A DNA stretch of 52,322 bases from Candidatus Omnitrophota bacterium (GCA_003644385.1 QNCD01000003.1:1-52322), one strand, 5' to 3'; counted from the stretch's first letter, positions 9,618 to 50,032 are shown. Numbers and translations are program-made. Notes: generated from the sequence alone by a model not told the origin.

Positions 9618-10270
9618 TGCCTTCCCTTATATTCGCTGGCTGGAATTACCTCTATATTTACCTTTGTTGAAGTAGTATTTTTCCCTTGCCATGTCAAAAA
9701 ACCACGGTTGCCCGATATTTTCTGGTCTTTTTCTATTTTAACTTCTCTTGTTAATCTCTCTTTTCTTAATTCTTTTTTCGCCTGGCGTATTTTTTTCTCT
9801 AAATCTTTTATCACTCTTCTTAGTTCTTTAATTGAAACCAGGTAATTTGCAATCTCCTCTTCTTTCCCGGGCGCCTTAGATAAACCTAAAATTATTTTCC
9901 TCTTCTCCTCTCTTAGAGCTAAATTCTCCTCTTTTAAAAGAGCGATCCGGTAATTCAGCTCTTCAATGCTCTCTTTTGTCTGTAACGAAGCCGCTCTGAG
10001 CCTGGCAACTTCTTTTTCTTTCGTCTCTATCTGCCGGGCTAAGTCTGTATTTTCCCGCCTGAGCTTCTCCAGGCTTTTCTTCTCCTCAAATAAATCCTGG
10101 AGCAGAAGTTCGTTTCCTTTTGACAAATCCGATATCCGGGTTTGCGCCTGTTTTAACTTATTTAATAAAACATGTTTTTCTCTGGTTGAGTCTAAATACT
10201 TAAAAATAGTAAAAATTGCGACCCCAAGCAGAAAAAAAACAATAATTATAATCGGTTTTAAATCCTTCAT
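9614..10270 (-). CDS. Membrane-anchored coiled-coil hypothetical protein
   Basis: N-terminal TM, long heptad-rich K/E region, C-terminal GNRGFL...VNIEVIP; overlaps the next gene by 4 nt. Confidence 0.75.
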   Translation of the reverse strand: MKDLKPIIIIVFFLLGVAIFTIFKYLDSTREKHVLLNKLKQAQTRISDLSKGNELLLQDLFEEKKSLEKLRRENTDLARQIETKEKEVARLRAASLQTKESIEELNYRIALLKEENLALREEKRKIILGLSKAPGKEEEIANYLVSIKELRRVIKDLEKKIRQAKKELRKERLTREVKIEKDQKISGNRGFLTWQGKNTTSTKVNIEVIPASEYKGRQ

Positions 10271-10509
10271 TAATCAGTTCTTTTAGGAAAAATATTATAT
10301 AATAAACCCCGAACCAAAGCAAATCTTTTTTGACCCTGAATTCCCCTCGCTAACAATCCGGTTTATATTTTAATTAAAATATTTCGTAACCTCTTTATTT
10401 TTCGAAAGATATATCTCTGATAAAATTTTAAAGCGGACTTATAAAGGCAAGTACTAATAAGTAGATAAGAAATCAAGGTCTCCTAATATTAAATTGGCCT
10501 CTGATGCAG

Positions 10510-41642: not shown

Positions 41643-43208
41643 GTGATGTTAGCCAAAGTACTCAGTTTCGGTTTATGCGGAATAGAGGCGTATCCTATTG
41701 AAATAGAAGTAGATGTTTCAAACGGCCTACCCACATTATCATTAGTGGGACTTGCTGATACCACTATAAAAGAAAGTAAGCAGCGGGTTAAATCAGCAGT
41801 AAAAAATTCAGGTTTTAAATGGCCGGAAGGAAGAATTACCATAAACCTCGCCCCTTCGGACTTGAAAAAAGAGGGAGCCTGTTACGACCTACCCATTGCC
41901 CTGGGTATATTGGCGGGGAGCGGACAACTAAACAGTGAAAACTTAAATATTTATTATATTTTTGGTCAATTATCTCTAGATGGCTCACTGCAACCAATAA
42001 GAGGGATATTACCTATCAGCATGGAAATCGCAAAATCCCTACATATTCACGAAACTCCTTTATCATTAAAAAAGGAAAACCTTATTGTCCCCCTGCAAAA
42101 TGCTAAAGAGGCAGGGTTAGTGCCAGGGGTCAAAGTTTGGCCGCTAAAAACATTAAGGGAAACAGTAGAGTTTCTCAATAATCGAAGTATGGCTATGCCA
42201 TTAAAATTAAATTTTAAAAATTTGTTTGAGCAGAATTCGCGGTATAGAATAGATTTCTCTGAAGTTAAGGCTCAATTTTTAGCCAAAAGGGCAATTGAGG
42301 TTGCCGTGGCTGGAGGCCACAACATCTTGATGATCGGCCCACCCGGAAGCGGCAAGACTATGCTCGCCAAAAGGATCCCTACAATTATGCCTGATTTAAC
42401 ATTAAATGAAGCGTTAGAATTAACTAAAATACATTCTATTGCGGGGACGCTGCCCAAAAATGAAGGCATAATGGCCACCCGGCCTTTTAGAAGCCCGCAC
42501 CATAGTGCATCTGATGTAGCGTTAGTAGGCGACGGGTCAATCCCTCAGCCAGGAGAAATAAGCCTGGCACACCAGGGTGTTCTATTCTTAGATGAATTGC
42601 CGGAATTCCAGCGCAGTTCTTTAGAAGCTTTAAGGCAACCCCTTGAGGAAGGATTAATACGCGTTTGCCGTATCAAAAAATCATTTGTATTTCCTGCCTC
42701 TTTTATGTTAGCAGCAGCTATGAACCCCTGCAAGTGTGGCCATTTTAACGACCTTAAATCTTCCTGCAGGTGCACGCCAAATGAAATTTACAAATATCGC
42801 GCTAAAATATCCGGTCCTTTATTGGATAGAATAGACATACATCTTGAAGTACCTGCTGTGCGTTATCAAGAACTAACATCCAGAGTGCCTACTGAAAGCT
42901 CTGCTCAAATAAAAGAAAGGGTAAATAAGGCGCGTGAGATTCAAAGAAAAAGGTTAAAAAATGAAGGAATTTTATGCAATGCTCAAATGTCTCATAAGCA
43001 GGTACGCAAATTCTGCGAATTAGGCAAAGAGGAAAATGAGCTTTTGAAGATGGCGATGACAGAACTTAATTTTAGCGCCAGGGCATACGACAAAATACTG
43101 AAAACCTCAAGGACTATCGCTGATTTAGGCGATTCTGAAAATATCTCAACAGAGCATTTGTCAGAGGCGATTCAGTACCGCTCTTTAGATAGAGATTTCT
43201 TCCTTTAA
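41643..43208 (+). CDS. comM: YifB/ComM Mg-chelatase-like AAA+ ATPase
   Basis: IEVDVSNGLP, ITINLAPSDLKKEG, GPPGSGKTMLA, RPFRSPHH, LFLDELPEF, AAMNPCKCG, SGPLLDRID, SARAYDKI, EAIQYR. Confidence 0.96.
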   Translation: MMLAKVLSFGLCGIEAYPIEIEVDVSNGLPTLSLVGLADTTIKESKQRVKSAVKNSGFKWPEGRITINLAPSDLKKEGACYDLPIALGILAGSGQLNSENLNIYYIFGQLSLDGSLQPIRGILPISMEIAKSLHIHETPLSLKKENLIVPLQNAKEAGLVPGVKVWPLKTLRETVEFLNNRSMAMPLKLNFKNLFEQNSRYRIDFSEVKAQFLAKRAIEVAVAGGHNILMIGPPGSGKTMLAKRIPTIMPDLTLNEALELTKIHSIAGTLPKNEGIMATRPFRSPHHSASDVALVGDGSIPQPGEISLAHQGVLFLDELPEFQRSSLEALRQPLEEGLIRVCRIKKSFVFPASFMLAAAMNPCKCGHFNDLKSSCRCTPNEIYKYRAKISGPLLDRIDIHLEVPAVRYQELTSRVPTESSAQIKERVNKAREIQRKRLKNEGILCNAQMSHKQVRKFCELGKEENELLKMAMTELNFSARAYDKILKTSRTIADLGDSENISTEHLSEAIQYRSLDRDFFL

Positions 43209-43523
43209 ACCAAGAATGGCTTTGAGTTTTTCTTGGGTTCTTCTATAGGGGTTTTATATTTCTTGCCTCCCAATTATATACTGTGGTTTCAGTAACCCCT
43301 ACTCGCCTGGCAAGCTTTTTCATCGTAATACCTAAATCCATACGTCTTTTCTGATTCTCTCGCCAATCTTATGATGCTTCGGATATCGAGGATTAAACTC
43401 AAAGCGATTAACTTCGATTTCAAGAGTATAAAATAATCTGCCTTTAGAATCATCTCTAAAACTCATTAGACTCTTCCTTTCTAAAAAGAAAGTCCGCATT
43501 TTAAAAATGCGGTCTCTTGCCAA
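43185..43523 (-). pseudogene. XRE-family HTH regulator remnant (left copy)
   Basis: TLEIEVNRFEFNPRYPKHHKIGERIRK / RMDLGITMKKLARRVGVTETTVYNWEARNIKP / YRRTQEKLKAILGL; shifts near 43348 and 43250. Confidence 0.75.
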
Positions 43524-43563
43524 ATCTATTTAATATGTTAATCGGCTATTTTTAATTACCTTA

Positions 43564-43872
43564 TTAAAATAACTGAAATAGCTGCTGATAATAGCTAAAT
43601 ACACTCTTCAAAGAATTAACAAAGATCACACCTAATAGATAGCTCAGGATAATAACGACAGAACTTATAATGGCTTTTTGTTTTTTATCAAAACGGGGAT
43701 TGAATCACACTAAGGGTAACATAAACGTGCCGATACACAAAAATGCTATTATCAAGATATGGGTTTTGAAATACCATTTTTCAATTGGCCTTTTATTTAA
43801 GAATTCTCCACAGTGCTTACATTTTATAGCGCCATTTTGTATCTCTTCAGCACAGTAAGGACATTTTTTCAT
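43564..43872 (-). pseudogene. Zinc-ribbon membrane protein with an in-frame TGA
   Basis: [25 protein letters not shown]...[49 protein letters not shown]...; TGA at 43705-43707; frame continues to TAA at 43564. Confidence 0.75.
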
Positions 43873-43895
43873 ATTGTATACCTATTAAAAACTTT

Positions 43896-44105
43896 CTATA
43901 AATCGAAATCCCTTCTATCACTTATGCGTTTAAGGCAAATGTTTTGCGCTATTTCTCTTCTTAATCTTTTAATGTCTTCATCATTTATATGTTGATCTTT
44001 AATATTGATGTCTGTTAGCTTTGCCTTATATGCAAGCTTACCAATCATATAAAACTTATCGGTAAAATCTTTTTTAAGTCCGCCTCCGCACTTTCTTATT
44101 TCCAT
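43896..44105 (-). CDS. Hypothetical protein, possibly the 3' part of a decayed gene
   Basis: 69-aa ORF without recognisable motif; upstream frames are interrupted. Confidence 0.3.
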   Translation of the reverse strand: MEIRKCGGGLKKDFTDKFYMIGKLAYKAKLTDINIKDQHINDEDIKRLRREIAQNICLKRISDRRDFDL

Positions 44106-44241
44106 CTCTATATAATATAATACTAACGTTAAAACCCTGCAGATATGCCGGAAGGGATATTCTCACGATTTTTGTTTATTCTTTGTTTAATCCGTTCTAT
44201 ATCTTTTTTAAATTCCATACCATATGAAAGATAACTGTTTT

Positions 44242-44574
44242 CTATTCTTTTGATTTAATGACCTTGTTTACTGCAACAATAGCAATGCTTCCGACCCCTT
44301 CCTGTGTAAAATCAATCTTTTCCTCTGTAAGTAATTTATTAAATTGCGCCAAGAAATCCTTTTGGTCAATTAAGGCTAATATGGTCTTACAGGCAGCTCT
44401 TTTCTCTCCAATCATCTGCCGTAATCCGGCAAATATAGGCACTTCATGCGCTAAATAGTCTCCGAGTCTCTCGCCATCTTGGATAATTGCATCGGAAATT
44501 TCTAATTCTGCTAAAATAGATAATATCGGCTCAAGGTATTCTTCTTTATTAAGCACAATCACCATAAGTTCCAT
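44242..44574 (-). CDS. PII-like (GlnB-fold) small protein
   Basis: 110 aa: MELMVIVLNKEEYLEPIL...EVPIFAGLR...KTILALI...GVGSIAIVAV; GGAGG RBS; follows the antiporter gene. Confidence 0.7.
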   Translation of the reverse strand: MELMVIVLNKEEYLEPILSILAELEISDAIIQDGERLGDYLAHEVPIFAGLRQMIGEKRAACKTILALIDQKDFLAQFNKLLTEEKIDFTQEGVGSIAIVAVNKVIKSKE

Positions 44575-44591
44575 TGTATCCCTCCAATATT

Positions 44592-45788
44592 TTATTTGGC
44601 TTTACCAATTTCTCCGGCCTTTGAGATAGCAAATTTCGTCGCTATAGGCCCTATTATTTCAAAAATTATTGTAGTTGCCGCAATAGTATTTATTACAGCT
44701 ACAGCTAAATCTTTCCCCGTAGCCCCGAGAGAACCAAATTCTCTTGTTGCCAGTATAGCAAATCCTATTGCAACACCGGCCTGCGAAAGAATGCCGAGCC
44801 CTAAATATTTTCTAATAACAGGGGCGGATTTGGATATAGTGGCTCCGAAATAGGCACCGCCCATAAGCCCTAATATCCTGCATACGATATAGATTAGACC
44901 CAATAGCCCAATTGCTGGAAGAAGACCAATCTGTAAATGCGCACCGGCTATAACAAAGAATACAATATAAATGGGAAGGGTGATTAACTGTGTCGCCTGA
45001 TATGTTCTTCGATTCGCCAGTAAGAATGTGTTAGCGAATATCATCCCTAAGCTCAAATTTGCCAAAATTAACGAGAAATTAAAACATTTAGACAGACCCG
45101 TGCAAAGTATTATGCAACCCAAGGCTATGACTAATATTTCGCTTTTATTATAAACCTTGCGTATAGAATATCCAAGTAAAAGTCCCATAAGTCCACCCAA
45201 AAGAATAGCTCCACCTATTTCAATAACTGGTTTCCCAATAGTATTAATTAGAGACATATTATCGCCTGTTATAAAAACTTTCGCTAAACCTGATGCAAAT
45301 GCATAAATTATAATAGCTAACCCGTCATCGAGTCCGACAACAGCATAAAGTGAATTCGTTAGAGGACCTTTTGCCTTATATTCTTGTAAAACCACGGCCG
45401 TTCCCGCTGGCGCTGATGCAGGCGCCATAGCTCCGAAAATAAGCGCTAAATATATCTTATGGGTTAATAGGTAAACACCCAGCGCGACAAGCAGAAATGC
45501 TCCAAAAGATTCTGAAAATATAATGGTAATTATACCTTTTCCCATTTTCCGGAGCGTGCTAATACGCATTTCACAACCAATGACAAAAGCAACCAATCCC
45601 AAAGCCAAATCATTAAAGACTCCCATTTTCCCCAAGATGCCGATATTTAGAATATTGGTAAAGGAAGGCCCCAGTAGAAGGCCTGCAATAAGATATCCGA
45701 CAACAGACGGCAACCTAAATTTGTTGCTAAATTTGCCTCCGAGGAATCCTGCGATGATAGAAGTGCCTACAAATACCAATATATCCAT
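44592..45788 (-). CDS. Cation:proton antiporter (CPA2 / Na_H_Exchanger)
   Basis: LPSVVGYLIAGLLLGP, AFVIGCE, ASAPA, VGLDDG, FFVIAGAHL, SQAGVAIG, EIIGP; no cytoplasmic RCK tail. Confidence 0.92.
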   Translation of the reverse strand: MDILVFVGTSIIAGFLGGKFSNKFRLPSVVGYLIAGLLLGPSFTNILNIGILGKMGVFNDLALGLVAFVIGCEMRISTLRKMGKGIITIIFSESFGAFLLVALGVYLLTHKIYLALIFGAMAPASAPAGTAVVLQEYKAKGPLTNSLYAVVGLDDGLAIIIYAFASGLAKVFITGDNMSLINTIGKPVIEIGGAILLGGLMGLLLGYSIRKVYNKSEILVIALGCIILCTGLSKCFNFSLILANLSLGMIFANTFLLANRRTYQATQLITLPIYIVFFVIAGAHLQIGLLPAIGLLGLIYIVCRILGLMGGAYFGATISKSAPVIRKYLGLGILSQAGVAIGFAILATREFGSLGATGKDLAVAVINTIAATTIIFEIIGPIATKFAISKAGEIGKAK

Positions 45789-45804
45789 AATCTTCTAACT
45801 CTTC

Positions 45805-46635
45805 CTATGATTCAACTTTTCTAAATTCATCCAGGATTTCTTTGGGATTCGAAGCTGCCAGAAGTCTTTTTCTGAAATCCTCTTTTTGCAAAAGTCTGCT
45901 TAAGTGAGCAAGAAGCTTCAGATACGCACTTAATTTTTTCTTTGCAGGTGTGCCGATTAAAAATACAAGCTTAACCGGTCTTTTATCTATAGCATCAAAG
46001 TCAAATCCTTCTTTAGACCTCCCAAAAGCGATAACAACGTCTTCCACGGTATCGGTACGGGCATGTGGGACAGCGACTTCATATCCAATACCTGTTGAAA
46101 CCATCTTCTCTCGAGTGAATACCGCAGAAACAAATCCTTCAAAATCAACGATATCTTTTTCTTTTTTAAGAATCTCTGCCAGTTCTTTAATTACATCTTC
46201 TTTTGTCCGTCCTTTTAAATCAAGCAAAATGTTTTCTTCTTTGAGATATTCGCAAAGTTTCATTTTGACATTCTCCTCTCTTTTCTGTGTGTAAAATGAA
46301 CCCTTCTCCAAATGTTTTACTTTTACATAAGGTAGTGTGCAAACAAAAGCCTTTTCGTTAAAATTCCTCCATCTTGAGGAAGATGTGTCATCTTCAAGAT
46401 GATTCATAATCCGTTCTATTTTTTTCTCATCGTCTACAAGGGCTATAAGGGCCTTGTCGTATTCCTTTGAAAGACCTCCTTTCCGAAATCCAAGGGTGCC
46501 CGCCGAATCACCCTCTAATAGAGAGCCGATTCCATTCCGCCTAATAATAGTTACGTCTGGAATTTTTTCCTTCTGTATAAGTGGCATAATCGATTGAAGA
46601 TAATTCTCATTTTTATGCATTATAACCAATAACAT
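45805..46635 (-). CDS. PII-like domain fused to PTS EIIA (Fru/Ntr type)
   Basis: Start ATG 46635 after GGGAGG. N half resembles the 44242 protein (MLLVIMHKNENYL...YDKALIALV...AFVCTLP); C half is EIIA: REKMVSTGIGYEVAVPHAR...FDAIDKRPVKLVF. Confidence 0.82.
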   Translation of the reverse strand: MLLVIMHKNENYLQSIMPLIQKEKIPDVTIIRRNGIGSLLEGDSAGTLGFRKGGLSKEYDKALIALVDDEKKIERIMNHLEDDTSSSRWRNFNEKAFVCTLPYVKVKHLEKGSFYTQKREENVKMKLCEYLKEENILLDLKGRTKEDVIKELAEILKKEKDIVDFEGFVSAVFTREKMVSTGIGYEVAVPHARTDTVEDVVIAFGRSKEGFDFDAIDKRPVKLVFLIGTPAKKKLSAYLKLLAHLSRLLQKEDFRKRLLAASNPKEILDEFRKVES

Positions 46636-46690
46636 GGCATCCTCCCGCGTTAAAAATGACTTTCCGTCAAATTTATAGTTCTCTACAGAA

Positions 46691-47002
46691 TCAAAGGATG
46701 GGAGGAGAGTGATTAAATAAGTCGGAATAAAAGAATAAGTAAGTACTAGAATGGTTGTGTCCAAATAAAGTAACGAAAGAATTGAGGGGATGTATTGAAT
46801 GGGTTAAAATAGGAACATCTGTGTCTGGAAAAAAGTCAACAGGATGATAATCCTTTTTGTTAGATTTGATTTCTTTGATTTCGCAAATCTCTTCTCTGCT
46901 TTCGGCCTCTTGACATATAGGAGTAACCATATGCAAACTGAATTCCGGAAGCATGACGATTAATAATACAAAATTTACTAACAAAGTCTTGTGTTTGTTC
47001 AT
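46691..47002 (-). CDS. Hypothetical protein
   Basis: 103-aa ORF between the two EIIA genes with a hydrophobic N terminus; no motif recognised. Confidence 0.35.
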   Translation of the reverse strand: MNKHKTLLVNFVLLIVMLPEFSLHMVTPICQEAESREEICEIKEIKSNKKDYHPVDFFPDTDVPILTHSIHPLNSFVTLFGHNHSSTYLFFYSDLFNHSPPIL

Positions 47003-47020
47003 CGTAATCTTCTGGGTTAT

Positions 47021-47728
47021 CTAAATCTGATTGCCGGCATACATATGTTCTCTGTCGAATAGCAATAATATTTGGGTTATTTCGTCCTTAGTTTCTGCCT
47101 GTAATAATTTTTTTATAACGCCGGGCATGTGAAAAAATTTAGCAATTTTTGCCAATAATCTAATATGAGTATATTCATTAGAAGTGCATGGCATAAAGAA
47201 AATATGAACGGGCTTCTTATCAGCTGAATCGCAATCAATCCCATTTTTAGAAAGCAAAATAACTATCTTAGATTCTACAAACAAATCTGGAGAAGGATGC
47301 CGAGGATGAGGAATAGCTATACCATTACCTATAGCTGTACTCAAAAATTTCTCTCTTTTTTTAAGTTCACTAAGAAGTTTCTCTTGCGAAGGAGTCAAGC
47401 CTTCTGTATGGGCAATTTTCGCTAATTTCTCAAGAACCGCGTCTATATCTTTTGCTTTTGAATCTAACTCAATCAGATTATGATTTGTCATTCTCGATAA
47501 GGGAATGATATCAACCTCGGTTTTGATTACCGAATCCAATTCCTCATCAGGTGCTTCTGATAGATCCTTTAATAAAAAATTATCGATGGCTTTCAAATGA
47601 AATCGCCATTGGTTGCCAATTTTTACTCCAGGCAGATGGCCGCTCTGAGCCATCTTTATTATGGTTTTTTCATTCAACTTCAGATATTCCGCCAACTCCT
47701 GCGTGGTAAAAACCTTATTTTGCTCCAT
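47021..47728 (-). CDS. Excisionase-like HTH_17 domain fused to PTS EIIA(Ntr) (PtsN-like)
   Basis: FTTQELAEYLKLNEKTIIKMAQSGHLPGVKIGNQWRF; REKFLSTAIGNGIAIPHPR. Confidence 0.92.
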   Translation of the reverse strand: MEQNKVFTTQELAEYLKLNEKTIIKMAQSGHLPGVKIGNQWRFHLKAIDNFLLKDLSEAPDEELDSVIKTEVDIIPLSRMTNHNLIELDSKAKDIDAVLEKLAKIAHTEGLTPSQEKLLSELKKREKFLSTAIGNGIAIPHPRHPSPDLFVESKIVILLSKNGIDCDSADKKPVHIFFMPCTSNEYTHIRLLAKIAKFFHMPGVIKKLLQAETKDEITQILLLFDREHMYAGNQI

Positions 47729-47775
47729 ATCCGTATATTAACCTATTTTAACTTAAACTGACTTACTTTAACCCA

Positions 47776-47804
47776 AGTATGCCATATCTCTCATTTTCTG
47801 TCAA
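47776..47804 (-). promoter_or_regulatory. Sigma70 promoter of the EIIA-antiporter operon
   Basis: Minus strand TTGACA (47804-47799) N17 CATACT (47781-47776). Confidence 0.65.
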
Positions 47805-47816
47805 GAGTAAAAACGA

Positions 47817-48094
47817 TTATCCCTCAATAAAATTAAACGCACGAGAAAAATGCCTTTTGGCTGGTTGCAAGCCTCTTAATTCACAATTAATAACCGTCCT
47901 CAGGGGTCACGCCTATGATCTCTGCAATCTCTTTTATATACAGGCCCTTATCCATACGGGCTTTTCTGAGCTTCTCGCCTAGATTTTGGGAGTTCTTAGG
48001 GTAATCAGGGTTGAATTCGTTCAAATTCAGGCTTAATTCAAGCTTAATTCAAGCTCATAAACAAAAGGAGTGTTGCTATTATGTGCATCAGGGT
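47817..48094 (-). pseudogene. XRE-family HTH regulator remnant (right copy)
   Basis: NPDAHNSNTPFVYELELS / LNLNEFNPDYPKNSQNLGEKLRKARMDKGLYIKEIAEIIGVTPE / TVINCELRGLQPAKRHFSRAFNFIEG*; broken by an 11-bp duplication (AATTCAAGCTT, ~48035-48055) and a 1-nt shift near 47898. Confidence 0.75.
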
Positions 48095-48560
48095 TGCCCG
48101 TGCGGTTATTATACCGATTCCAGGAAAGCCTGTAAATGCAGCCCGGGTAAAATCCAAAATTATATGAATAAAATATCCGGCCCCCTTTTAGACAGGATAG
48201 ATATCCATATAGAACTACCTGCCTTAAAATATAAAGAGTTAAGCCAGAGAGAAGAAAATGAATCATCCGACATAATTAAAGCCCGGGTGGAAAAAGCACG
48301 AGTTATCCAAAGGCAGAGGTTAAATCCGAAGGTATCCCTTACAATGCCCAGATGAATACTAAATTAATAAAAAACATTGTCTCTTGGAAAATGAGACCCA
48401 AAGACTGCTAGGGATGGCAATGACAGAATTAGGATTTTCGGCAAGGGCTTATAACAAAATTTTAAAGGTTTCCCGCACCATTGCTGACTTGGCAGGTAAT
48501 AATAGCATCTATCCGCAACACATCTCTGAAGTAATACAATATAGGAGTTTGGATAAATAA
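48095..48560 (+). pseudogene. comM: Orphan 3' third of comM, two frameshifts
   Basis: CPCGYYTDSRKACKC...KISGPLLDRIDIHIELP...QRQR / KSEGIPYNAQMNTKLIK / HCLLE...MAMTELGFSARAYNKILKVSRTIADL...EVIQYRSLDK*; 1-nt losses near 48320 and 48372. Confidence 0.92.
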
Positions 48561-48565
48561 ATAGT

Positions 48566-50032
48566 TCACCTGAGCATGCGCATGAGGTTAACTTGGGCTG
48601 GCAGGTTATCCGGATCAATCCCAAGCACCCTTTCATATTCTGCACGCGCCTTTGTAAATTCGCCCTTAAGAACAAAGGCACGCGCCCGGTTTAAATATGC
48701 GGTAATATACTTAGGCGTAATCATAATTGCCTGATTAAAATCTGTGATTGCCTGTTCGTACGCCCCTGCGTCCAAATAGGCGCAACCGCGATTATTATAA
48801 GCGATAGGGTATTCAGGATACTGGCGTATGACGTCGCCCCATAAACTAAAGCTGTCTTTCCATACGCTGCATCGCTGCCAGCTTAAAACCGACAGGAAAA
48901 TTATTCCTATGCCTATGCTAAGATTAAACAGGAATCGCCTAAAATGCCTTTGCCTTTGCAGGCGAAAGTTAACCCAACGGCAACATTCGCCTACAAGGTA
49001 AAATAATCCGAGCCCGCTCATATAGGAGTAACGGTCTGCGGCTATAAAATTACCAAAAGGTATGATTTTTATTACCGGCAATAGGCAAATCAAGAAAAAA
49101 AATCCTGCAAAAAATATTTTACGCGTATAACGCAACGAAACTATTAAAAAAATGACCAATATTAAAACCAGCGGCGGTGAAAGATTAAATAGAGGCGATT
49201 GTAACTCTGCAGCCTTAGGAAAAGGGTATTGAGAGGAGAGATGGAAAGGCCAAAAAATTTTTTTTAGCTGAAATAACAGCGCATAACTGACAAGGCTAAT
49301 ACGGCGCCAAAAAGTAAAAAGCGAAGAAGAAATAATTGCGCCTCCGTCGTGCTGAGCCAAAAAACCAATTATTGCACCAATTAAGGCAAGTTGTATAAAT
49401 GGCAATTTTTCAAAAAAAATTTTCTTATTAGGCCGGCGCTTAAAGTGAAAATCTATTAAAAATAGTATAACCGGCAACGTAATCGCCATGACTTTCGACA
49501 AAAGAGAGAAAAAAAATGAAATAAGACCAGAATAATAGAAAACTTTGCGATTATTTTTTAAGTAATAAATATAGCAGATTAACGCCAATAAAAAAAACAA
49601 GCTATAAATAAGGCCTTTTTGCCCTGAAATCCATGCTACCGATTCAACATGAGCGGGATGTATGGCAAATAATATAGCCGCAACCCAGGCGGCAATAAGA
49701 GAATTGCTTATTAAAAGAATAAACCAAAAGGCTAGAAGACAATTTATAATATGCAGGATAATACTAATTGCATGATAACCTGTGGGATTAAGAGTAAAAA
49801 AACGGTATTGCAACCAATAAGAGAGCATGGTTATAGGGTGATAATTAGCATTATAAAATGAGGTGGCTATCCGCCACAGGCCCTTTACCGAACCGTCTTC
49901 TAAATCGCTATTCCGGGTAACGTATTCCGGATCATCCCAATTCGTAAATTTATTCTGTAAGCTTTGCGAAAAAATAATTACGCTAACAATTAATAAAGAC
50001 AGCAGAGCAATAATAATTTTTTTATTTTTCAT
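48566..50032 (-). CDS. TMTC/PMT-like GT-C glycosyltransferase with C-terminal TPRs
   Basis: FTNWDDPEYV, YHPITMLSY, FAIHPAHVESVAWIS, LLSK, ADRYSY, WKDSFSLW; TPR AYNNRG...AYLNRA. Confidence 0.9.
   Translation of the reverse strand: MKNKKIIIALLSLLIVSVIIFSQSLQNKFTNWDDPEYVTRNSDLEDGSVKGLWRIATSFYNANYHPITMLSYWLQYRFFTLNPTGYHAISIILHIINCLLAFWFILLISNSLIAAWVAAILFAIHPAHVESVAWISGQKGLIYSLFFLLALICYIYYLKNNRKVFYYSGLISFFFSLLSKVMAITLPVILFLIDFHFKRRPNKKIFFEKLPFIQLALIGAIIGFLAQHDGGAIISSSLFTFWRRISLVSYALLFQLKKIFWPFHLSSQYPFPKAAELQSPLFNLSPPLVLILVIFLIVSLRYTRKIFFAGFFFLICLLPVIKIIPFGNFIAADRYSYMSGLGLFYLVGECCRWVNFRLQRQRHFRRFLFNLSIGIGIIFLSVLSWQRCSVWKDSFSLWGDVIRQYPEYPIAYNNRGCAYLDAGAYEQAITDFNQAIMITPKYITAYLNRARAFVLKGEFTKARAEYERVLGIDPDNLPAQVNLMRMLR

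Follow-up and report, generated by a model that had tools for sequence, protein, structure and literature searches.

Organization of the comM locus

A contig of 52,322 nucleotides from a Candidatus Omnitrophota bacterium (GCA_003644385.1, QNCD01000003.1:1-52322), which is referred to as the window and was analysed over its whole length of 52 kb, carries a comM gene that is followed 5.4 kb downstream by a second, diverged comM 3' end. The region between the two junctions is an island (Table 1) that probably derives from a family of elements that insert into comM by means of large serine recombinases (LSRs). The genome (G000; G and L numbers designate genomes and loci of relatives, and C numbers contigs) is a metagenome bin of 1.74 Mb in 175 contigs, 90.7% complete and with a contamination of 3.9%, and the probable source run of the window is a sediment metagenome.

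The comM gene (41643-43208, plus strand) is one open frame of 521 aa. The Pfam families ChlI (9.9e-43), Mg_chelatase (1.7e-91) and Mg_chelatase_C (1e-33) are all matched nearly end to end, and by these domains the product is predicted to be a full-length ComM, i.e. a Mg-chelatase-like AAA+ helicase. The second tail, in the following termed the orphan, begins at 48095, which is 5366 bp past 42729, and it starts with the same Cys363 codon. Its first piece (48095-48322) covers ComM residues 363-438 and its last piece (48369-48557) residues 455-517 (tblastn, E 3.6e-40), while the middle piece (48322-48402) lies in the third frame, so that two frameshifts separate the three. Taken separately, the open pieces match positions 158-206 of 207 of Mg_chelatase at 1.1e-15 and 42-94 of 94 of Mg_chelatase_C at 1.2e-17. 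The attached tail and the orphan are 62-65% identical in DNA and 57-58% in protein. At the left junction the sequence reads ATG AAC CCC/TGC AAG TGT GGC and at the right junction CAG GGT/TGC CCG TGC GGT, where the slash marks the boundary, and the bases common to both junctions are the TG and scattered others. A repeat scan gave no terminal inverted repeats at the junctions.

Between the two tails, none of 39 stop-to-stop frames of at least 45 aa (43150-48150) matched a recombinase or transposase family (Pfam, E <= 0.05). The first-pass annotation of this DNA, made from the sequence alone, had described a full-length comM, a diverged second tail that starts 5.4 kb downstream at the same codon and is decayed by two frameshifts, the junction letters quoted above, and an interval free of integrases and transposases; all of this is borne out. 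Contigs that a second assembler produced from the probable source run bridge both junctions with 0 differences (41881-44679 and 46676-49000), and as they derive from the same data, they are not an independent proof of the assembly.

The resident 5' part of ComM is joined to an imported 3' part

For the analysis of the two gene parts, comM of 29 relatives was split at codon 363 and combined with the window gene and with partial sequences from G000, G003, G022 and G024, resulting in 34 rows for the 3' tree and 32 rows for the 5' tree. A scan with the attached tail covered 234 genomes of the order and gave a match in 209. Two classes of comM 3' tails can be distinguished, of which the A-type is the clade that includes the attached tail of the window, and the B-type comprises the remaining tails. 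The A-type clade has seven rows (the window, one G003 tail, G021, G008, G035, G024 and G002) and a support of 100/99, and the orphan and the second G003 tail are found among the B-type tails. The seven genomes are dispersed over the 5' tree, where G035, for example, falls into a starred clade with G040, G014 and G009. In an approximately unbiased (AU) test on the 5' alignment, monophyly of the seven carriers, a group defined from the 3' tree and not from the 5' tree, was rejected with a log-likelihood difference of 76.7 and a p-AU of 0.0052. Alignment columns that discriminate A-type from B-type sequences are absent upstream of codon 363 (0/351), whereas 14 of 158 columns downstream discriminate, the first at residue 371.

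In the 5' tree, G003, G011, G010 and G016 are nearest to the window, and the nearest rows to the orphan in the 3' tree are G016, G010 and the B-type tail of G003. Since the rows closest to the orphan recur among the closest relatives of the 5' part, the orphan is the old partner of this 5' part. The attached tail shares 78% protein identity with the A-type tail of G003; on the DNA level, the two A-type tails of window and G003 are 72% identical, the orphan and the B-type tail of G003 71.7%, and the cross pairs 62-65%. The ComM of the window is chimeric, with an imported 3' part fused to the resident 5' part, and what is left of the native tail is a pseudogene. This agrees with the earlier proposal that an element had supplied a replacement 3' end of ~480 bp and that the original tail is a relic, and the separate trees suggested at that time as a check gave an A-type attached tail, a B-type orphan and 5' parts of the carriers that do not form one clade.

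Some further observations concern A-type tails and comM genes of relatives. In G021 and G024, which were considered as candidates for islands of the same kind and rejected, A-type comM is located beside ordinary chromosomal genes and no orphan is present. The A-type match of G024 stops at residue 464, and residues 482-521 are encoded 22 kb away (L036/L037, C67, 2-700 and 23037-23144), with housekeeping genes in between that we take by eye to be folE, mnmE, folC and purH; this split may be due to a rearrangement or a misassembly. L087 contains an A-type tail alone (9989-10477), with no comM 5' part within 10 kb upstream, and this tail directly follows what are presumably lpx-like genes, named by eye. 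Otherwise full-length comM genes with one or two in-frame stops (TAG, TGA) occur in G028:C37, G013:C20, G036:C124 and others, and these may be pseudogenes or reflect sequencing errors.

Relatives carry LSR elements at the same comM codon

The comparison with relatives started from those of the comM tails that occur by themselves, in short frames of about 160-176 aa. In G222, G193 and G169, comM is split after codon 362, and a gene for an LSR of 487-520 aa adjoins the 5' half on the opposite strand. In G222 (L076), comM codons 2-362 are followed by the gene for a 520-aa LSR, an element of ~10.1 kb in all, an HTH (helix-turn-helix) gene, and comM from codon 363 to its end. The same layout extends over 11.6 kb in G193 (487-aa LSR, no HTH), over ~65 kb in G169 (L078/L079) and across two contigs in G153 (L080/L069), and in G068 the comM halves are on different contigs, with an HTH adjoining the tail. 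The TG of codon 363 is common to all junctions compared, including those of G222, G193, G169 and G153, and attL and attR of G193 share 22 identical bases around it. In this family, the LSR gene is positioned tail-first against the comM 5' half (attL) and an XRE-type HTH gene head-first against the 3' half (attR). A homologous HTH gene directly adjoins a comM 3' end in G025, G106, G153, G068, G222, G169, G196, L096 and L127, and a weak, decayed match is found at this position in L090.

By their sequence, the recombinases at this site belong to the large serine recombinases. The three complete comM-linked LSRs are ~35% identical to each other, and the best NCBIfam match of the G222 protein is CcrB, below the curated cut-off. 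Many genomes of the order carry LSR genes (80 of 234, E <= 1e-30). The conserved CxCG-coding site of comM appears to be an LSR target in Omnitrophota and, judged by attR-type joints, also in Verrucomicrobiota. The first-pass annotation had taken comM for an established LSR hotspot; a literature search did not confirm this, and it is the genomes of relatives that do, with LSR elements inside comM at the same TG. In a narrow search by titles and abstract starts, we found no prior description of an LSR element in comM or of an attP inside an LSR-HTH reading frame (see below).

The island of the window contains the remains of two XRE-type HTH genes, which we term HTH-A and HTH-B. HTH-B is the P-arm module of the comM-targeting LSR element family: it shares 54% identity with the intact HTH at the same place in G106 and 51% with the HTH of L089, and in its P-arm DNA, too, the window is similar to G106. 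HTH-A covers the whole intact 103-aa HTH of L089 with 46% identity and 5 internal stops. Both relics link the island to the element family. A strong promoter-like site with 11 of 12 consensus positions is found in the orphan start (48108-48136, minus strand), directed towards HTH-B; overall, promoter-like sites are no commoner than in shuffled sequence.

There are indications for further integration sites in comM. The gene is also split near residue 230 in G121 (C56, 2980-5206 and 20115-20978) and near residue 75 in G130 (C45, 16128-17826 and 35579-36904), in both cases with a different LSR beside the 5' fragment. This apparently brings the comM sites targeted within this bacterial family to at least three. 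Short orphans of the last 35-45 comM codons (~477-521) lie 1-22 kb downstream of comM on the same contig in G182:C115, G205:C7, G015:C36 and G024:C67, and on other contigs in G154, G165, G157 and G200, which hints at a further site near the comM 3' end. HTH genes of the subfamily are also present in L049 (G122:C4), L051 (G114:C11) and L056 (G011:C3), each bordering directly on the beginning of a comM tail, from a few codons up to 60. In G114 and G011, they are on contigs other than that of the full comM match, G122 is without a full-length tail match, and in G011 another LSR gene starts ~0.7 kb away from the HTH with its partial tail.

The recombinase-less arrangement recurs, and the comM site is polymorphic in G003

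The organization of the island is not unique to the window. In G106, comM is full length and ends in an A-type tail; it is followed by four cargo open reading frames (ORFs) over 3.4 kb, which we take to be AbiE-like, an intact 102-aa HTH, and an intact B-type orphan. In G196, an A-type tail is followed by three ORFs and an HTH beside an A-type orphan; comM codons 1-225 were not found upstream of its A-type tail. L090 consists of comM, ~1.1 kb, the decayed HTH match and an orphan, and L127, from Verrucomicrobiota, of a comM tail, an HTH and again a comM tail. An A-type tail that overlaps tail to tail with an HTH gene is found in L089 (intact 103-aa HTH) and in G035, and by this recurrence A-type tail and HTH appear to form a unit.

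In G003, the site is polymorphic. One 5' contig ends at the MNP codons plus TG. A second contig starts with the same last 55 bases and runs on as B-type tail, which corresponds to an empty-site path, and a third contig starts at that TG (2-base overlap) and runs on as A-type tail. Behind this A-type tail, the contig extends for 10.5 kb with genes that differ from the cargo of the window and are predicted to code for radical-SAM-like, TPR and carbamoyltransferase-like proteins. No HTH match was detected in G003, a bin that is 77% complete. The neighbourhood comparison that had been suggested in the earlier annotation therefore yields, at the very same point in relatives, an empty-site path, different cargo and recombinase-bearing versions.

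The attP of the LSR elements lies within an LSR-HTH reading frame

In G025 (L039, C17, 6217-6948), the C-terminus of the LSR runs without a stop into two HTH domains on one contig, and this HTH part is present once more, directly beside a decayed comM tail. When the two arms are joined in silico, the LSR frames of other elements likewise extend into the HTH, namely from 520 to 597 aa in G222, from 520 to 606 aa in G169, and from 399 to 477 aa in G153, the LSR frame of which is open at the contig end. The LSR frame crosses attP into the HTH in all four HTH-bearing elements, once as observed (G025) and three times as reconstructed, and in G193 the LSR ends before the crossover site. The reconstructed attP sites have dyad symmetry about the TG at 10-18 of 28 positions, compared with 7 expected by chance.

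As attP is inside the LSR-HTH frame, integration detaches the HTH from the LSR, and this suggests that the integration state may set the recombinase activity via the loss of the HTH. The A-type arm of the window is symmetric to the P arm at 8 of 28 positions, which is at chance level. The A-type arm thus appears not to be a P' half-site, and due to this lack of symmetry the left junction would be an attB-type joint rather than attL.

Cargo of the island and flanking genes

The ORFs of note between the two tails are on the minus strand throughout (Table 1). The HTH_17-EIIA protein appears to be regulator-like and not a recombinase. With comM queries, tblastn at E < 0.5 gave no third comM tail between HTH-A and the cargo. 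The possibility that the cargo genes are native neighbours of comM was considered and dismissed, as relatives give weak or distant matches, none of them beside comM. A zinc-ribbon gene next to an HTH gene in G043 (L055) turned out to belong to an unrelated tyrosine-integrase region. In an unrelated run from a hydrothermal vent metagenome (X2), two short contigs are at least 99% like a 430-bp stretch of the island (46743-47176), at a depth of 28-50; no other contigs of this run correspond to the rest of the region.

Table 1. Features of the comM locus and its island, with positions in the window
Feature	Position	Strand	Basis
comM codons 1-362, resident 5' part and B arm of the att site	41643..42728	+	ORF and Pfam
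TG of the Cys363 codon, presumed crossover dinucleotide, left junction	42729..42730	+	TG common to all junctions compared
Imported A-type comM 3' module, codons 363-521 and stop, in-frame fusion	42729..43208	+	3' tree, columns
HTH-A: decayed XRE-type HTH gene, tail to tail with comM, overlapping the last comM codons	43164..43466	-	Homology to L089 HTH
Terminator-like hairpin followed by T run, end of minus-strand cargo genes	43494..43512	-	Consensus scan; such sites not above shuffled sequence
Cargo: small zinc-ribbon protein, 55 aa	43705..43872	-	Pfam Zn_ribbon_3 3.8e-07
Cargo: 69-aa ORF, no family match (Pfam, NCBIfam)	43896..44105	-	
Cargo: 110-aa ORF, no family match (Pfam, NCBIfam)	44242..44574	-	
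Cargo: cation:proton antiporter, 398 aa	44592..45788	-	Pfam Na_H_Exchanger 3.9e-26; NCBIfam CPA2 below curated cut-off
Cargo: phosphotransferase system (PTS) EIIA-2 domain protein, 319 aa	45805..46764	-	Pfam PTS_EIIA_2 5e-37
Cargo: 103-aa ORF, no family match (Pfam, NCBIfam)	46691..47002	-	
Cargo: excisionase-type HTH_17 and PTS EIIA-2 protein, 235 aa	47021..47728	-	Pfam HTH_17 2.5e-13, PTS_EIIA_2 1.6e-31; TIGR01764 9e-12
HTH-B: frameshifted XRE HTH gene, 5' end abutting the right junction	about 47790..48051	-	Homology to attR-side HTH of relatives
TG crossover, right junction (attR)	48095..48096	+	Junction comparison
Orphan: native comM tail of B-type, displaced and spread over three frames (48095-48322, 48322-48402, 48369-48557)	48095..48560	+	
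Membrane protein of 488 aa with TPR repeats, chromosomal flank on the right	48566..50032	-	Pfam TPR families

Origin of the island and alternative explanations

Which process could have given rise to an island that leaves comM intact by exchanging its 3' end? With a probability of about three in four, we regard the region 42729-48094 as a decayed, non-autonomous derivative of the LSR element family that inserts in comM at the TG of Cys363 (MNP/CxCG). The island has the attachment site of this family at its junctions, with the common central dinucleotide TG, and with HTH-B it has a homologous P arm; an LSR of its own was not found. The probable source of the island, i.e. the comM-targeting LSR element family, is what the present analysis adds to the earlier observation.

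We infer the following history of construction. An ancestral LSR element would have split comM, with the LSR gene at attL and the HTH gene at attR. The unit of A-type tail and HTH-A would represent an attR segment that was closed into a circle, and this circle would have entered an LSR element already in place by recombination at its attL. Such an attL x attR recombination would be the sole legal LSR reaction that yields a joint of comM 5' and 3' parts. Later on, the resident LSR gene would have been deleted, with cargo and HTH-B remaining, and the island would now be fixed.

Several points weigh against this history. The predicted intermediate, consisting of A-type tail, HTH, attP and LSR, was not found among the examined relatives. 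The contiguous LSR-HTH frame of G025 is not beside a comM tail, and the contig of G035 ends inside the HTH, with no exact overlap with the start of the LSR contig of that genome. To the right of HTH-A, nothing LSR-like or P'-like was seen, with no dedicated sensitive search run there. G000 is the sole genome of its genus in the set, so that a close empty site is not available, the genomes in the comparison are all metagenome bins, and the evidence from G003 consists of contig ends. Most A-type tails in relatives (e.g. G021, G024) are without a detectable orphan or HTH; A-type tails are thus able to persist, or to spread, also where there is no island. Finally, according to one study, attP x attB and attL x attR are the sole site pairs that serine integrases recombine (PMC3783163). 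Under this restriction, an attR-type circle is unlikely to have inserted directly into an uninterrupted comM, and the history requires two steps.

Among the alternatives, a repair of an LSR-split comM by foreign DNA with A-type comM and HTH, e.g. via transformation, has to be considered, although we think it unlikely. In such a scenario, the left crossover would be homologous within the comM 5' part, the right joint would be illegitimate inside the element, the LSR would get lost, and no site-specific left step would be required. This would be compatible with orphan and HTH-B forming an ordinary attR, with the missing LSR, and with the existence of contiguous comM tail and HTH in L089 and G035, and a paper on Acinetobacter raises the restoration of interrupted comM by DNA of other strains (PMC11472951). 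A homologous crossover does not explain, however, why resident and A-type sequence meet at the att core in all cases where the point of transition can be located, as evident from the discriminating columns described above, nor why the paths of G003 diverge right after the TG; moreover, a layout that recurs in several genera and in another phylum is not expected from random illegitimate joints.

It is also improbable that the island is still mobile, with a helper LSR acting in trans and moving cargo between comM sites while ComM stays intact. The co-occurrence of empty-site and A-type paths on the same 5' sequence in the G003 bin, the different cargo in the A-type islands of G000, G003, G106 and G196, and the abundance of LSR genes in the order would fit to such a mobility, but in the window the two HTH genes and the orphan are all disrupted, the island gave no match to a recombinase domain, and the left junction is predicted to be attB-type and not attL. 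Excised, empty or alternative joints were not detected in contigs of the probable source run and of one other run, in which rare forms would be invisible. The only match to the Recombinase domain (PF07508) in the 90.7%-complete genome, and hence the only LSR found there, is on contig C27. This LSR is only 21-27% identical to the comM-linked LSRs, and nothing supports a role as trans-acting helper, which we regard as unlikely. Just upstream of the start of its gene (L047, G000:C27, 832-2280, 482 aa), the C-terminal end is repeated as an incomplete, inverted copy (2323-2583). Of the two states left open by the first-pass annotation, a fixed remnant thus appears to be the more likely one, and mobilization in trans today the less likely one.

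A local tandem partial duplication, or an assembly chimera of two strains, which a bin of 175 contigs with 3.9% contamination might suggest, is highly improbable, as the two tails differ by far in DNA and belong to different clades, the second assembly bridges both junctions without differences, and the architecture recurs in other genomes.

Relation to known systems and implications

Within the LSR-derived reading of the island, the comparison with known elements is instructive. LSR elements inside genes are known from Listeria and Bacillus (A118 in comK, SPbeta, skin), while the integrases of e14 and of mycobacteriophage BPs, to which we come back below, are tyrosine recombinases. The comM-splitting LSR elements of G222, G193, G169 and G153 share with the island the same TG, a homologous P-arm HTH and the lack of long direct repeats, but they interrupt comM and encode an LSR, whereas the island restores comM and has none. 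Pseudo-SCC elements (SCC, staphylococcal cassette chromosome) at rlmH (orfX) of staphylococci and cis-mobilizable elements (CIME) of Streptococcus thermophilus are recombinase-less and att-bounded, leave their target intact, and undergo tandem accretion. The island would resemble them in being non-autonomous, with a recombinase that is lost or elsewhere and a target gene that is intact; here, the right junction is attR and the left one apparently attB-type, no recombinase was found in the island, and no joined form in the contigs. In contrast to SCC, which swaps the last few codons, a third of the gene is exchanged by a diverged copy.

The most similar outcome is described for e14 and phage 21 at icd of E. 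coli, where the element supplies an alternative 3' end, the gene remains whole, the old end persists at the distal border of the element as icdC pseudogene (PMC13626634), and e14 excision re-joins icd with the old tail (PMC13626634). Replacement end and orphan are both present at the comM locus; no tyrosine integrase was found in the island, and the two junctions do not share a long identical core. Unlike the island, e14 still has its recombinase and excises; in addition, the site in comM is a predicted serine-recombinase site, the exchanged tail of 159 codons has ~58% protein identity, and the replacement tails form a horizontally spread clade of their own.

The comM gene is reported to be a recurrent target of mobile elements in Acinetobacter baumannii, including Tn7-like AbaR islands (PMC11472951), which share with the island the target gene and an insertion within the Mg-chelatase domain. 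AbaR islands inactivate comM by means of a transposase, whereas here ComM is kept and no transposase domain, no Tns or Tni genes and no terminal repeats were found in the island. An attP within a coding sequence, where integration alters the protein that is made, is described for mycobacteriophage BPs (PMC4557955). This resembles the attP inside a reading frame of the autonomous comM-element relatives, of which the window has a relic alone, but while BPs splits its repressor, it would be the LSR itself that loses its C-terminal HTH in the comM elements.

Tentatively, and with considerable doubt, A-type tail and HTH could be viewed as a mobile comM-repair cassette that rebuilds both comM and the attP/LSR-HTH fusion via attL x attR, with different recombinases being made in the integrated and the excised state, i.e. 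an integration-dependent switch. If confirmed, an LSR activity that is set by integration would be of interest to engineers of serine integrases. ComM is described as a helicase for the recombination of transforming DNA with heterologous stretches, and mobile elements are thought to gain from breaking comM, since transformation can cure them (PMC11472951). Derivatives that mend comM with a horizontally spread tail may thus represent a natural system in which it can be asked whether hosts or rival elements select for the repair of a competence gene, and, if our view is true, there would be a conflict over the competence helicase between ComM-splitting elements and mending cassettes.

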